Shown here one piece after another: positions 9,750-32,403 of a DNA stretch of 64,000 nt; positions within the stretch are counted from its first letter, which is position 1; every line of letters starts with the position of its first letter. A program made the position numbers and the translations under genes. The notes under the pieces were generated by a model. That model did no database searches, was not told where the DNA came from, and worked only from the letters and a program-made list of their open reading frames with translations. The stretch lies in assembly GCA_963710945.1 (NCBI GenBank), contig CAVQCH010000004.1, positions 11,774 to 75,773 of the forward strand. The letters run 5' to 3'. This stretch comes from an uncultured Acidobacteriota bacterium. GTDB lineage: Bacteria > Acidobacteriota > Thermoanaerobaculia > UBA5066 > Gp7-AA6.

Positions 9750-12419
9750 TCAGCGCGGCGGCAGGTCGATCAGAACGACGTTCGAGTTCTCCCGGATGCG
9801 GTCGAAGAGGATCCGCTTCCCGTCCGGCGACACGTCGAACGACTTGATCTGGAATCCGGGCCGCAGGTTCGTCAGGGCGCGCATGCGGCCCGTCGGGAAA
9901 TCGACTAGCCAGAAGTCCTGCCGCCGGAAGAGGCCCTGCATGACGACCAGCGACTTGCCGTCGGGCAGAAACCGGTAGCGATCGCCGTAGGTGCGGATCC
10001 ACAGCTCCGGAAGCGGGACGGGCTGCCCCTCCGGCGTGACGGCCTTGAGCTGACACACGAGGCCCCGACGCCCTTCGCTGTAGACGATCAGCTCGCCCGT
10101 CGGGCGACCAGACCGGGTTGTGCACCACGCCCTCCACCAGGCGCACGGGCGGGCCGCCGTCGACGGGCACCTTGTAGAGAGGCTTGGCGGTTCCTTCCTC
10201 GGCCGTGACGGCGACCCACTTTCCGTCCGCCGACCAGGAGGGCGAATCCGGAGCGTCGAGCGACGGAGCGAGCTCGCTCACGCCCGGTCCCGTCCGCCGC
10301 CACGACGCGCAGCCGCGAGTGGCCCTGCTTGCCGGATCGGGAAACAGATCCTCCCCGAGTCGGGAGAGATCGCGGCGGCCGAGGCCAGCGCTCCCTCGGA
10401 GGCCTTCCAGAGCTCCGTCGCCGCGCCGTCCTTCCACTTCCAGAGCCCGTCGGCTCCTCCCTTGGAGGAGAGAAAGAGGAGGAAGTCCTTCCCGAATCGC
10501 GGCGCTGCGGCCCGCGTCGTGGGAAGGACGAACGGGGCCGCCGCCGTCTCGTCGGCGATCCCGGCGGTGATCGGAACGCTCCACAGGCCCTGCGTCGGAT
10601 TGGCCACCGTCGCGGCGAGACGGCGCCCGTCCGCGCTGCCCGACACCGAGATGTATTCCTCGAGCCCGAAGCTCAGGCGGCGCGAGTCCCGCCGCTCGAC
10701 GTCGGAGCCGTAGAGATGCGAGCCATCCTCGTCGACCATCGTGTAGATCAGCGTGCGCGGATCGAGAAACACGGGATACGCGATCCGGGCGTGATGCTCG
10801 GTGATTCGCTCGGGTTTCCCGCCGCTCGACGGCACGCGCCAGATGTCCATGTCTCCGATCGTCGGAATGCCGCGGACGAAATACACGAAGCGTCCGTCGG
10901 GCGACCACGTCGGGAAGTGGCAGTGAAAGCCGGGCTTGTCCACGAAGATCTGCCGGCTGTTCGCCCCGTTGCGGTCCGCGACGAAGATCGGGTCGCCCTC
11001 GCCCGCGGTGTGGTACGCCAGCCGCGACCCGTCGGACGACCAGACCGCGGTGACCGCGTTCGCGAGGAGCGGCCGCGCCGCGCCGCCGAGAGTCGGCACG
11101 ATCCAGAGCCCGCTCGGCGACACGCCGCCGCCGGGCAGGGCCTTGCCCGTGACCCGCAGCCAGACCTCGGACGCGTCGGGGGAAAAGCCCACGCTGCGCG
11201 TCTCCTCGTGGAGCAGCTCCGGAAACTGGCCCTTCGTCAGGTTCAGGGCCTGGCCGCTGCCGACCTGGGTGATCCAGGCGTCGAAGGGCGGCCCGTCGCG
11301 ATCCGCGAGAAACGCGACGAACTTGCCGTCCGGCGAGATCGCCGCGTCGAGCTCCGATCCCTCCCAGTCCGTCAGCCGGGAAAAGCGCGCGCCGACCAGC
11401 GGATTCGCGTCGGACGCGCCGGAGCGCCGCCCTCGCCAGACCGTCAGCCCCGCGGCGAGAAGCAGCGCGGCCGCGACCAGCGCCGGTACCCACGCGCCCC
11501 GCCGGGCCCGGCTTGGGCAGGTCGACGGCCGCCAGAACGCCGCTCGTCGCCTCCGAGAGGTGATCGCGCACCGTCGCGAGCTCGCGCCCCAGGTCTTCCG
11601 TCGAGGCGTAGCGGTTGCGCGGGCTCCTTGGCGATGCACCGCTCCACGATCCAGCGCACGGGAGCCGGGATCTTCGCGTTCACCGCTGCGATCGGCTCGG
11701 GCTCTTCCTGGATGATCGCGGCGAGCGTCTGGGGCGCGGATGGCCGGGCAAAGGCGCGACGCCCGGTCGCCATCTCGTAGAGGATCGAGCCGAGCGCGAA
11801 CTGGTCCGACCGGAAGTCCAGCTCCCTTCCGAGCGCCTGCTCGGGCGACATGTATCCGACGGTCCCCATCACGATCCCGGGCTCCGTCGCTCCCGAGACC
11901 GTCGGCGCCTGCGTCTGCTGACCGCCGCTCCCGTCCGGCTGCGTCAGCTTCGCCAGCCCGAAATCCAGGATCTTGACGTGGCCGTCTTCCGTCACCATCA
12001 CGTTCTCGGGCTTGAGGTCCCGGTGCACGATGCCGGCCGCGTGCGCCTTTGCCAGGCCCTCGGCGATCTGCGCGCCGATCTGCAGAACGCGCCGCACCGG
12101 CATCGCGCCGTTCGCGAGCGCCGCCCGCAGCGGCTCCCCGCTCGACGAGCTCCATCGCGATGTAGGACTCGCCGCCGTCCGCGCCGATGTCGTGGATCGT
12201 GACGATGTTCGGATGATTGAGCGACGAGGCCGAGCGCGCTTCCCGCTCGAAGCGCTTCAGGCGCTCCGGGTCGGAGGCGAGCGCGGACGGGAGCACCTTG
12301 ACCGCCACCTCGCGCCCGAGCCGCGTGTCGCGCGCCCGGTACACCTCGCCCATTCCCCCCGCGCCGAGGGGCGACAGGATCTCGTAGGGGCCGAGCCGCG
12401 TGCCCGCTTCAAGAGGCAT
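9750..12419 (-). CDS. Hanks-type Ser/Thr protein kinase with TM helix and TolB/PD40-like beta-propeller; several frameshifts
   Basis: [56 protein letters not shown]; repeated (W/F/I)SPDG motifs. Confidence 0.9.
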
Positions 12420-12469
12420 GGATCAGCCGGAAATCTTACAGCGGGATCGCGAATCCGCCGGGCAGTGCC

Positions 12470-29661: not shown

Positions 29662-29703
29662 GCGAGGCGTACACGGAGACATGACGCTTCGAAGGGAGAA
29701 GTT

Positions 29704-32403
29704 GTGAAAGCCATCCGCTACCCGCTGCCCGTCTCGATCGCCCTCGTTCTCATTGCCGCTCTGGCCTCCGTCGCGCCCGCTCAGGAGAGTGTGTGGACTT
29801 CCCATGGCCCCGACGTCGGAGCCGTGAACGACCTCGCCATCGCCGACTCGGTCGCCTACGCGGCGACGCCGAACGGAGTTTTCCGCTCGACCGACGGCGG
29901 CGGGAACTGGCAGGCGACGAGCCTGACCGGCCAGCTGGTCTTCCAGATCGCGGCTCGCCCGGGGAGCGCCACCGTGGTGGCGCTGCTCAACGGCGTCTGG
30001 CCAGCGCCCAATCTCTACATTTCGCTGGACGCGGGACAGACCTGGACGAGTGTCCCGGACCAGAACTCCGTGGCGGTCGTCGCCATCGACCCCGCGCACC
30101 CGTCGAACGTCTACGCCGGCTCGAACGACGGCTCGATCTGGAGGTCGACGGACGCCGGTGCCAGCTGGCAGCACATCTCGACGCTCCCCGGCAACACCCC
30201 GGTCTCGGCTCTCACGCTCGACTCCCGTGCGATGTGCGTACTCGCCGGCGGCGACTTCTACAGGAGCGTGGACGGAGGAATCAGCTGGACATCCCTGCAG
30301 ACGCCCCTGGGGCTTCCCGGTTCGATCGCGGCAGGCTCGAGCGCCGGCGTCGTTTACGCCTCCGTTTCCGGAGCGGTTTGCCGGAGTGCCGATTCGGCGA
30401 CGACCTGGACCTGCTCGAACAATTTCGCGCCTTCCCCCATTGCCAGGATCCTCGAAGTGCCGGGCGGCCCCGCGGGTCCCGGTGTGCTGGCTTCCTCGGC
30501 CGGCGGTCTGTACCTCAGCCGCGACGGCGGGGCGACCTGGACGCGCGTGACGGGCGATCTCGGCTCCGCCTATTCTCCCGCGCTCGCCTCGGACACCATG
30601 GGATCGCTGGTGCTCGCCGGAACGGATACGCAGATCTTCCGAAGCCGGGACCGCGGCGACAGCTGGACGGCCTCCAGCTCAGGATTGAAGGCGGTCAAGA
30701 TCGACGCGCTCGCCCTCGACCCGAACGACCCCGTTACGGTCTGGGCCGGTGGTGTCGGCAACTACGGGTCGGGCCCCGGCCTCTTCCAGTCTCCCAACGC
30801 CGGCCTGTCGTGGTCCCCGGCGGGCGGCCCTCAGGGACCTGAAGGCATCAATGCCCTCGCGATCGATCGCGAGCATCCGCAAACGATCTACGCCGGCTCG
30901 AACGCGGTCTTCCGAACCGACGACGGCGGCCAGACCTGGACGCATTCCACTTCCGACCCGAACTCGGGGCTGAGCGTCCTGGCGCTCGATCCTGCCTTTC
31001 CTCAGCGCGTCTGGGCGGCCAGCGGGTCGGGACTGCGTCGGAGCGACGACGGCGCCCGGACCTGGGCTTCCGCGACGATCGCCCAGTCGATCTACAGCCT
31101 TCTCTTCGACGGCCGTCACCCGGAAACGATCTATGCCGGCTCCCATTCGGGACACCGACTACAGCTACCCCACCTACCCCGAGGTGTACGGCGGCTCGAT
31201 CTGGGTCAGCCACGACCACGGAGCAACCTTCACGAAGGGCGCTTACCAGTTTTCCGACCCTGTCATCTCCATCGCGCGGGACCCGTTTCTGGACCGGGTC
31301 CTGTACGCCGGTACCGCCTTCACAGGTGTCTTCCGCAGCGAAGACGCCGGTGCGACATGGGAGGTGGCGAGCGAAGGTCTGTTCAACCGCGGCGCAGCAG
31401 CGGGTCTGATCAACGCCGGCCCGGTCTCTTCGCTCGTCGCCGATCCGGCTCGTCCTGGATATGTGTACGCCGCCACGGCTTACGGCGTGTTTCGATCGAC
31501 CGACGGAGCGCGAACCTGGCAATCCTTTTCGAATGGGCTGTCGCCGCTGGCGACCGACACGCTCGTCATCTCTCCCGACGGCGCGAAGCTGCATGCCGGC
31601 ACAAACGGCGGCGGCGTCTTCGAACGGGATCTTGCCGCCGACCTGAAGCTCCCTTGCGTCCCGAGCTCGACGCGGCTTTGTCTGATCGGCGCGCGCTACG
31701 CCGTCGATCTCTACGCGTTCCCGGGGGCCGGCGGAGGCCCGGGAGCCGCGCGGGCCCTGGGCGATCGGTCCGGGTCCTTCGCCTTGCCTCGCGTCACCGG
31801 AAGCTCCGAGCTGCCGGAGGTCGTCGTGAAGATGCTCCCCGAGGGAAGCCTCGGAGGACCCAGGGAAGGCGCGCCCGTCTTCTACGCGAGCCTGACGACG
31901 GTTCCTTACTCGCTCATCGTCACCGACACGACCCGTGGGACGAGCAAGATCTACTCGAGCCGTTCCGACGCGCCCCTGTGCGGGGCGGCGGATCTCGCGT
32001 TCGGAGGGTCGGCGGCGGCGGGAAGGCGTGCGGCCGCGGGCTCGTCCGAGAGCGAGGCGAGGCGTCGCTTCTCGGCGGGAGTTTCTCCGTCTCTCTCGAG
32101 GCGCGTTGGCCCCTCTCCGGAGCCGTCACGAGTACGTTCGCCATCGCCTCCGGCGATTCCTACGCGTTCTTCAGCCTGCCCGAAGTGAGCGGAGATCCCG
32201 CAGTTTCCGGAGGTCGTCGTTAAGATGATCGACGCGCGCGCGGTCAACGGCGAGTTCTGGTTCTTTTACACGGGCCTGACGAGCCTCGACTACACGCTCA
32301 CGGTGACGGATTCCGTAGCGGGCGAGTCCAGACCTACGAAAGCGCGACACCCTTCTGCGGTGGCGCCGACACACGGGCTTTCGCAAACTCGGTCGGGAGT
32401 TGA
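29704..32403 (+). CDS. Secreted BNR/Asp-box (Vps10/GH74-like) beta-propeller with two divergent C-terminal recurrent domains; several frameshifts
   Basis: Signal peptide (APA-QE); about 13 SxDxGxTW-type Asp-boxes; C-terminal CLIGARY...PEVVVKML and PEVVVKMIDARAVNGEFWFFYTGLTSLDYTLTVTD; stop TGA at 32401-32403. Confidence 0.82.

Follow-up and report, generated by a model that had tools for sequence, protein, structure and literature searches.

Two-domain winged-helix and FHA proteins beside Hanks kinase and exported-protein genes in Acidobacteriota: candidate phosphothreonine-dependent transcription factors

To our knowledge, control of transcription by bacterial Ser/Thr kinases is documented mostly by isolated examples, EmbR among them; the kinases are promiscuous, and a general logic of one kinase for one regulator is not known. 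EmbR is phosphorylated by the kinase PknH, which enhances its binding to promoters (PMC6213207). As judged by sequence comparison, EmbR-PknH is the nearest known system to the one described here, which is encoded in a stretch of 64,000 nucleotides (nt) from an uncultured soil Acidobacteriota bacterium (C4:11774-75773 of genome G000; hereafter the window). The window carries three paralogous regulators (copies 1 to 3) of about 220 amino acids (aa) each, built of an OmpR/PhoB-type winged helix and a forkhead-associated (FHA) domain alone. With a probability of roughly 0.6, these proteins are predicted to be phosphothreonine (pThr)-dependent transcription factors in which the FHA domain stands at the place of a receiver and which would be switched by Hanks-type kinases. 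The genome (3.97 Mb in 7 contigs) is 79% complete by marker genes. The window has a G+C content of about 70%, and its relatives are metagenome-assembled genomes of the acidobacterial classes Thermoanaerobaculia and Vicinamibacteria.

Both domains of the regulators are recognized by Pfam (copy 2: Trans_reg_C E-value 3e-16, FHA 2e-19; copy 3: 6e-15 and 8e-18), with Trans_reg_C E-values of 2e-16 to 6e-15 over the window regulators. No BTAD, receiver or transmembrane (TM) domain was found by Pfam in any of the three copies (E ≤ 0.01); Response_reg has no Pfam match in the regulators and the winged helix begins at residue 1. A hydrophobicity rule found an N-terminal signal-peptide- or TM-like segment in 0 of 78 related regulators. 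The AlphaFold2 model of copy 3 (mean predicted local distance difference test [pLDDT] score 86) has two confident soluble domains, a winged helix (residues 1-100) and an FHA sandwich (113-208), joined by a linker of about 12 aa (101-112); residues 105-112 and 209-222 are of low confidence. In a structure search, the FHA fold matches Rv0020c/FhaA (TM-score 0.90) and GarA, and the winged helix is nearest to ToxR (TM-score 0.84). The best sequence match of the regulator in the PDB is EmbR, with both domains aligned. The two FHA domains score 64 bits against each other. The winged helix scores 50-63 bits with PhoB, KdpE, PcoR and CadC versus 15.5 bits with EmbR, and it also matches HilA by sequence. 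No NCBIfam model reaches its cut-off on the regulators (EspM model: 26.7 bits versus a cut-off of 550).

The FHA positions G136, R137, S151, R152, H154, S171, K172, N173, G174 and T175 are invariant in 79 sequences and cover all of the canonical pThr-contacting residues. Six to eight residues after the last FHA strand, the regulators carry a tail of the form [ST]-T-x-[TS]. All 78 sequences have T-x-[TS] and 58 of them ST-x-[TS], and the tail motif also occurs in 120 of 120 close homologues. The region has a pLDDT below 50 in the copy 3 model, and the motif resembles the T-x-T found in the activation loops of the partner kinases. On the strength of this conservation, the tail is proposed to be a phospho-acceptor.

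The family is widespread. In an even sample of 201 genomes of the phylum, 16 have a full-length match, with one to four copies each (one of the positive genomes, G024, is unpublished), and G000 has the highest number, seven. Clustering gives 2,686 representatives at 50% identity (E ≤ 1e-30); at 90% identity the clusters number at least 7,267. Of the 150 best homologues, about 140 have a length of 206-247 aa and match from end to end, and the public names of family members are generic only. Five of the seven genes in G000 are intact and two are split. They account for seven of the 13 FHA matches and six of the 15 Trans_reg_C matches of the genome, and three of the seven fall within 16 kb. Related loci were collected by scanning a single genome of each GTDB species with a degenerate pattern; this returned at least 600 stretches, 582 of them confirmed among the matches listed. 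The best 78, which are ranked by likeness to the kinase-bearing copy 3 and are mutually related, were analysed. Genes around them were called from GC-frame plots, a GC3-GC2 open reading frame (ORF) score and homology. Further near-full-length copies lie within 10 kb in 8 of the 78 loci, so multi-cassette islands recur.

Kinase genes were sought by a six-frame scan of these loci with a hidden Markov model of the kinase domain, built from 44 intact G000 kinases. In 28 of the 76 loci that cover the tested bin, a kinase domain starts at most 350 nt downstream of the regulator on the same strand, versus 0.63 expected from 54 kinase starts in 6,482 other strand-bins (about 44-fold). Other kinase positions are +1.0 to 1.75 kb (6 loci), upstream and co-directional (3 loci) and divergent (3 loci). 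In a tree of 81 regulators, from which L013, L025 and L053 were left out for stops inside the match, the clade of copy 3 has 24 rows, and in 17 a kinase lies downstream. All six members of the starred clade that holds copy 1 have a downstream kinase, and copy 2 falls in a starred clade of ten, of which six have no kinase and four have one 1.0-1.75 kb downstream. The copy on contig C6 of G000 groups in a clade of nine that lack a kinase and have an M24 peptidase upstream. A downstream kinase is seen in several clades of the tree and marks 12 of the 57 rows that lie beyond the clade of copy 3; the label changes 13 times on the tree, and at least four of these changes are forced by starred branches. 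Regulator and kinase-domain distances are correlated over 25 pairs (Mantel r = 0.66, reached by 0 of 5,000 permutations), a correlation to which shared species history contributes. The possibility that the three window copies are recent tandem duplicates was rejected, since each falls in a different clade with orthologues elsewhere. At L039, a gene for an extracytoplasmic function (ECF) sigma factor (10792-11382) separates a regulator of the copy 2 type from the kinase that follows. The kinase may work with this sigma factor, comparable to the reported PknS-EcfK pair.

The partner kinases resemble receptors. In the window, copy 1 is followed by a gap of about 133 nt, then kinase 1 and then kinase 2. 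Kinase 1 lies in two frames, with one break near 12756-12769, and matches the 871-aa kinase of L051 (residues 2-341) at 83% and 75% identity. A natural kinase of this short form, 337 aa with a TM helix at 310-328, is encoded at L042:10764-11774. The short form has almost no ectodomain in either the window or L042; in the window, the full-length propeller kinase 2 comes directly after it. Kinase 2 shows a Pfam Pkinase match at residues 1-84 together with PD40 (genome scan fragments at C4:23391-24159). Compared with intact orthologues by tblastn, it passes through frames -3, -1, -2 and -3, with the first break at a CCCC run. Kinase 3 is an orthologue of the intact 874-aa kinase of L006, with 80% and 68% identity to residues 1-314 of that protein. 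Its tblastn frames are -3, -1, -2, -1, -2 and -3, and its C-terminal part matches PD40 at 32 bits in 26226-26783. The L006 kinase has one TM helix (303-321) and TolB-like repeats. The TGA stop codon of copy 3 overlaps the GTG start codon of kinase 3 as GTGA (28814-28817), a zero-gap junction that is also found in L006 and L008. Neither Pfam nor the kinase scan places a kinase next to copy 2 in the window.

Among the paired kinases of relatives, HRD.K..N is retained in 27 of 28 and DFG...[AS]PE in 26 of 28, and the activation loops contain T-x-T; by these catalytic motifs the kinases look active. A TM helix follows the kinase domain in all 11 kinases examined. Of 23 partner ectodomains, 15 have PD40, one has TPR and seven have no Pfam match. 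No juxtamembrane Thr motif stood out in the motif survey of the paired kinases. Elsewhere in G000 (C7:411774-443959), at least ten Hanks kinase genes stand in a row on one strand over about 32 kb.

On its other side, the regulator commonly faces a gene for an exported protein. Among the 70 loci with enough flank, GC-frame plots of the 900 nt upstream of the regulator indicate a gene divergent from the regulator in 42 and co-directional with it in 23, with five unclear. A signal-peptide-like start was called in 29 of 37 divergent ORFs, versus 61 of 232 in the background (ORFs at a distance of over 3.5 kb), 3 of 21 for upstream ORFs on the regulator's strand and 0 of 28 for the kinases. The divergent partners include BNR/Sortilin propellers, Vgb-lyase-like propellers, PAP2, beta-helix and CotH proteins, an outer-membrane barrel, small lipoproteins and an HExxH mini-protein. 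Whole cassettes are conserved: in six genomes the HExxH protein accompanies a regulator of the copy 1 type, and in five the BNR protein accompanies one of the copy 3 type. Of the seven copies in G000, five have a divergent neighbour marked as secreted or outer-membrane by Pfam or a signal-peptide-like start. The copy on contig C1 faces a 173-aa ORF without a Pfam match, and the C6 copy has no divergent neighbour.

The partner of copy 1 is a small protein in which H157-E158-x-x-H161 and E167 are invariant in six orthologues; its only Pfam match is a weak, sub-threshold one to Aspzincin_M35. Homologues occupy the same divergent position in L038, L042, L056, L063 and L081. This HExxH family is without family assignment, and in the window and these five loci its genes without exception stand back to back with a regulator of the copy 1 type. 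In the partner of copy 2, the signal peptide (MRKRL..., from 22545) and the body (22807-23916) are read in different frames, and FWFxDxxNxELxVKVLD is present twice. The BNR gene opposite copy 3 aligns with its L006 orthologue in frame +1 over 29737-31146 and in frame +2 over 31151-32404; it has at least one frame break, at about 31148, and its true end lies near 32404. The L006 orthologue passes the NCBIfam model F510_1955 glycosylhydrolase. BLASTP of the copy 2 partner against the copy 3 partner gave no match with single-frame ORFs; the domain that they share appeared only when the other frames were read.

This recurrent C-terminal domain of about 100 aa has the pattern C.L...RF.V.V.W ... FWFFD..N.E..VKVLD ... 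FWVFY.GL..L.Y.L.VTD..TG and ends several secreted proteins, namely the copy 2 and copy 3 partners and a Vgb-lyase-like propeller. It is found at 16452-16808, 17831-18175, 22680-23520 (two copies) and about 31900-32404 (two copies), with 15 strict matches genome-wide, and it has no match in Pfam or NCBIfam. It may be a lineage-specific sorting or surface-anchor domain. Propellers of the Vgb-lyase family recur as divergent partners (L002:6890-9295, L015 and L016), and one is encoded between cassettes 1 and 2 of the window (16547-18187). The gene purL (23711-26152) is directly downstream of kinase 3 on the same strand, and L032 has purL immediately before a regulator of the copy 2 type, a remnant of shared gene order in the island.

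The divergent gap of cassette 3 contains a candidate operator. There, two tandem direct-repeat units with TCAG-type half-sites, TCAGCGATTCATCAGGAA (29588-29605) and TCAGCGTTCCATCAGCAA (29616-29633), lie about 105-150 nt upstream of the regulator start and also upstream of the BNR gene. They are the sole matches in the window to a pattern that was derived from those units themselves. In each of L005, L006 and L009, one such unit precedes the regulator start by 104-112 nt, and in L006 another lies 66 nt before a second paralogue. The repeats are kept although the flanking gap sequence does not align among these orthologues. Beyond the copy 3 orthologues, TCAG-N7-TCAG shows no general enrichment: there are 4 matches in 19,250 nt of upstream sequence, 3 of them in those orthologues. 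The gap of cassette 1 has conserved blocks of another kind (GGGAATTC, CCGCTATCC.TGACG.TCGC, GGTCTTGAG and T-rich repeats), and that of cassette 2 has a TGCGCnATAAT-like element. The coordinates of the features are collected in Table 1.

Table 1. Regulators, kinases, exported-protein genes and intergenic elements of the three cassettes in the window.
Feature	Position	Strand	Basis or remark
Kinase 2, Hanks kinase with PD40/TolB-like C-terminal region, at least 4 frame segments	9750-12419	-	Pfam, tblastn
Kinase 1, short Hanks kinase of ~340 aa, kinase domain and TM anchor	~12470-13505	-	Pfam Pkinase (E-value: 5e-44)
Regulator copy 1 (winged helix and FHA)	13639-14272	-	Pfam; one-base frame break between 13928 and 13923
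Cassette 1 divergent gap	14273-14412	.	Blocks conserved in 6 of 7 orthologous loci (MAFFT of upstream regions)
Small secreted HExxH protein, ~185 aa, four conserved Cys; partner of copy 1	14413-14970	+	Signal-peptide-like start
Regulator copy 2 (winged helix and FHA), intact, no adjacent kinase	21751-22413	-	Pfam, Trans_reg_C and FHA
Secreted protein with two copies of the recurrent ~100-aa domain; partner of copy 2	22545-23916	+	Signal peptide; break near 22790
Kinase 3, receptor Hanks kinase (kinase, TM, PD40/TolB-like propeller), at least 6 frame pieces	26223-28817	-	tblastn, Pfam
Regulator copy 3 (winged helix and FHA, 222 aa), intact; stop overlaps kinase 3 start	28814-29482	-	Pfam, junction sequence, AlphaFold2 model
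Candidate operator, two tandem 18-nt direct-repeat units, 11-nt inner period	29588-29633	-	Pattern match, orthologue conservation
Secreted BNR/Asp-box (Sortilin-Vps10-like) propeller with C-terminal recurrent-domain copies; partner of copy 3	29704-~32404	+	Pfam, signal peptide

An earlier note on this DNA, made from the letters and their ORFs, had described three paralogues consisting of a winged helix and an FHA domain only, free of BTAD, receiver and TM domains, each on the minus strand and back to back with a signal-peptide protein. It had further placed two Hanks kinases after copy 1, a GTGA-coupled membrane kinase with a TolB-like propeller after copy 3 and no kinase beside copy 2. The Pfam matches, strands and signal-peptide-like starts bear this description out for all three cassettes. 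Both kinases after copy 1 are present, although frame-split as assembled; for kinase 3, GTGA is in the sequence and PD40 was found, and the TM helix is taken from the L006 orthologue. Copy 1 agrees in part: both of its domains are where the note put them, and the continuous gene falls away, as the 634-nt span is not a multiple of three and bridges a frame break. The note had also asked whether kinase adjacency extends beyond this genome, whether kinases and regulators share a phylogeny and whether divergent secreted genes are enriched. The 28 of 76 loci over several clades and the excess of signal-peptide-like starts answer the first and the third in the affirmative, and the Mantel correlation, to which shared species history contributes, agrees with the second. 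Its overall reading of a modular unit of kinase sensor and FHA regulator is supported, at the level of sequence comparison, by this linkage, the invariant pThr-contacting residues, the retained catalytic motifs, the exported partners and the conserved direct repeat in the gap of cassette 3.

The mechanism proposed for the cassettes runs from the envelope to the promoter. A receptor Hanks kinase, with a cytoplasmic kinase domain, one TM helix and a periplasmic TolB-like propeller, would sense an envelope or extracellular cue and autophosphorylate Thr residues of its activation loop. By analogy with EmbR-PknH and GarA-PknB, the FHA domain of the regulator would dock on this pThr, and the kinase would then phosphorylate the [ST]-T-x-[TS] tail behind the FHA domain. 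With lower confidence, the pThr tail might be read by the FHA domain of a second regulator or in cis. Such reading might alter the oligomeric state and bring winged helices onto the repeats of 11-nt period in the divergent promoter region, again with lower confidence. The outcome would be a switch of the back-to-back gene for the HExxH mini-protease, the BNR propeller or the recurrent-domain protein, and probably of the regulator-kinase operon too. Kinase-less regulators (copy 2 and four others in G000) would draw on the approximately 70 other kinases of the genome.

Several observations weigh against this reading. No kinase is present at the tested positions in 41 of 84 family rows, and in G000 itself a kinase is directly downstream of only two of the seven copies. 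G000 has a very high kinase density, with 92 Pkinase fragments in 3.97 Mb or about 70 kinase genes, and only two PP2C phosphatase genes, both away from the cassettes. The P values overstate independence because the loci are phylogenetically related and were ranked by likeness to the kinase-bearing copy 3. Signal peptides were called by a crude rule based on hydrophobicity, in which alternative starts are scanned. The repeat motif is derived from the window and is seen in three to four close orthologues only, and a motif common to all three divergent gaps was sought and none was found, which does fit differing recognition helices and separate specificities of the cassettes. Finally, if the frame breaks discussed below were real, the local cassettes would be dead.

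A stricter form of the proposal is that the cassettes are a true Ser/Thr analogue of two-component systems. Each regulator would have a dedicated kinase, a reciprocal handshake between the FHA domain and the pThr tail would replace receiver dimerization on 11-bp repeats, and the pairs would be insulated by co-divergence and by different recognition helices. This form is tentative, and the odds are against it. If it holds, Thermoanaerobaculia and Vicinamibacteria would possess a private, expandable wiring for secreted and surface proteins.

Alternatively, the cassettes may work like a ToxR or CadC protein split in two. The FHA domain would dock the winged helix on the phosphorylated juxtamembrane region or activation loop of the kinase and so recruit the regulator to the membrane or sequester it there, and the tail would not be the key phospho-site. 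The nearness of the winged helix to ToxR in structure, and to CadC and HilA in sequence, agrees with such tethering. The partner kinase brings exactly the TM helix and periplasmic sensor that the regulator lacks, and the coupling through GTGA suggests matched amounts of the two proteins. However, tethering leaves the universal Thr tail unexplained, half of the family is without a dedicated kinase and the survey brought no juxtamembrane Thr motif to light; it is considered unlikely.

The target might also be closer to home, with the regulator controlling its own regulator-kinase operon, or with the FHA protein being an adaptor that tunes the kinase, and the divergent exported gene a bystander. 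The position of the repeats, which precede the regulator as well as the BNR gene, would suit this view, as would the many unrelated families of divergent partners and the co-directional upstream gene in 23 of 70 loci. Against it stand the frequency of exported partners (29 of 37 versus a background of 26%) and their conservation together with their cassettes, HExxH and BNR alike; this explanation is considered improbable.

The frame breaks bear on whether the local cassettes are functional, and the earlier note was silent about them. As assembled, frame breaks interrupt copy 1, each of the three kinases and two of the three divergent genes. In copy 1, found as two pieces in the genome scan (C4:25698-26042 and C4:25421-25708), the winged helix ends with ...VFRLVWG (13928) and the FHA part resumes one base off with REVALG (13923), where the coding strand has four consecutive G. 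About 12 kb of these genes contain at least 11 breaks, and the regulators of copies 2 and 3, purL and truA are intact, a contrast that would suit decaying pseudogenes, the graveyard of a once-active system. However, the breaks examined sit at runs of three to four identical bases. Kinase domains split between frames occur genome-wide, which along with the 79% completeness is as expected for an indel-rich long-read consensus. The broken pieces retain 60-83% identity to orthologues with no in-frame stops in the aligned parts. Short-read contigs that are 96-97% identical to the window show as many gaps as the inferred breaks that they span (one each in records 7, 28 and 29, two in record 31 and zero in records 4, 5, 6 and 30, which span no break); the gap positions are not visible, and these contigs, being short and from related organisms, are weak evidence on the frame breaks only. 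The breaks are very likely consensus errors of a long-read assembly at short homopolymers, which probably explain the 79% completeness of a seven-contig assembly, and real decay has little probability.

That the FHA domain is phospho-independent, serving only in oligomerization or protein binding with kinase adjacency due to co-regulation, is highly improbable: such functions are known (from a review cited in PMC7002343) and many members have no kinase neighbour, but every canonical pThr-contacting residue is invariant and a position-specific 44-fold kinase linkage is hard to explain otherwise.

The preferred reading, in which pThr-dependent regulators are switched by Hanks kinases, would matter for several reasons. 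The family is large and compact with a stereotyped gene order, and its hosts are abundant, poorly studied soil Acidobacteriota with dozens of kinases. If the reading is correct, the cassettes would be a simple, hard-wired module from kinase to promoter. It would help to explain what acidobacterial receptor kinases and TolB-like sensors target, namely exported enzymes and surface proteins, and the module could provide an orthogonal phospho-switch for synthetic biology.

Several known systems share parts of this design. ToxR and CadC have an N-terminal winged helix of the same subtype and pass a periplasmic signal across one TM helix; in these proteins the sensor and TM helix belong to one polypeptide, whereas in the window family they reside on a separate kinase and the link would be phospho-dependent. 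OmpR/PhoB response regulators have the same Trans_reg_C winged helix and bind tandem direct repeats of a period near 10-11 bp. PhoB boxes are direct repeats with an 11-nt period, to which the candidate repeat upstream of copy 3 is alike. Unlike these response regulators, the window family has no receiver or phospho-Asp; its input domain is FHA, its DNA-binding domain comes first and its kinase is of the Hanks rather than the histidine type. GarA and OdhI combine an FHA domain, of matching fold, with a short disordered Thr motif. Their switch motif, ETTS, is N-terminal and binds in cis. They differ from the window family in regulating enzymes and in having no DNA-binding domain, and the motif of the window family instead follows the last FHA strand.

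Among FHA-containing transcription factors, Myxococcus xanthus reportedly has sigma54 enhancer-binding proteins in which an FHA domain replaces the receiver domain, a finding ascribed to Jelsbak, Givskov and Kaiser (2005). The concept is alike, with FHA in the receiver's place in a kinase-rich bacterium, but those proteins are built on an AAA+ sigma54 activator core with a Fis-type HTH and no OmpR-type winged helix. EspM of Mycobacterium marinum and M. tuberculosis, an FHA and HTH protein, is encoded divergently from its target whiB6 and binds the shared gap (PMC7002343). Its FHA domain is N-terminal and its C-terminal HTH is of a different kind, and in the text covered no kinase dedicated to it is named.

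EmbR of M. tuberculosis (SARP-type wHTH, BTAD and FHA; PDB 2fez and 2ff4) comes closest, with an N-terminal OmpR-like winged helix, a C-terminal FHA domain and a tie to a receptor Hanks kinase, which for the window family is suggested by gene linkage. EmbR has a BTAD and 388 aa; the copy 3 regulator has 222 aa and no BTAD, and its winged helix is PhoB-like. Membership in the SARP/EmbR family fails because BTAD is absent. The Thr tail after the FHA domain, the TolB-propeller kinases and the occurrence in Acidobacteriota further set the window family apart. No prior description of a two-domain family of winged helix and FHA was found in the literature covered, which brought up EmbR, EspM, ArnA, FOXK and reviews and left most subscription journals and supplements uncovered. 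The comparison supports the view, as far as sequence can carry it, that the family is an uncharacterised variation on the EmbR scheme, with a PhoB-type winged helix and no BTAD, linked to TolB-propeller receptor kinases and to genes for exported proteins.

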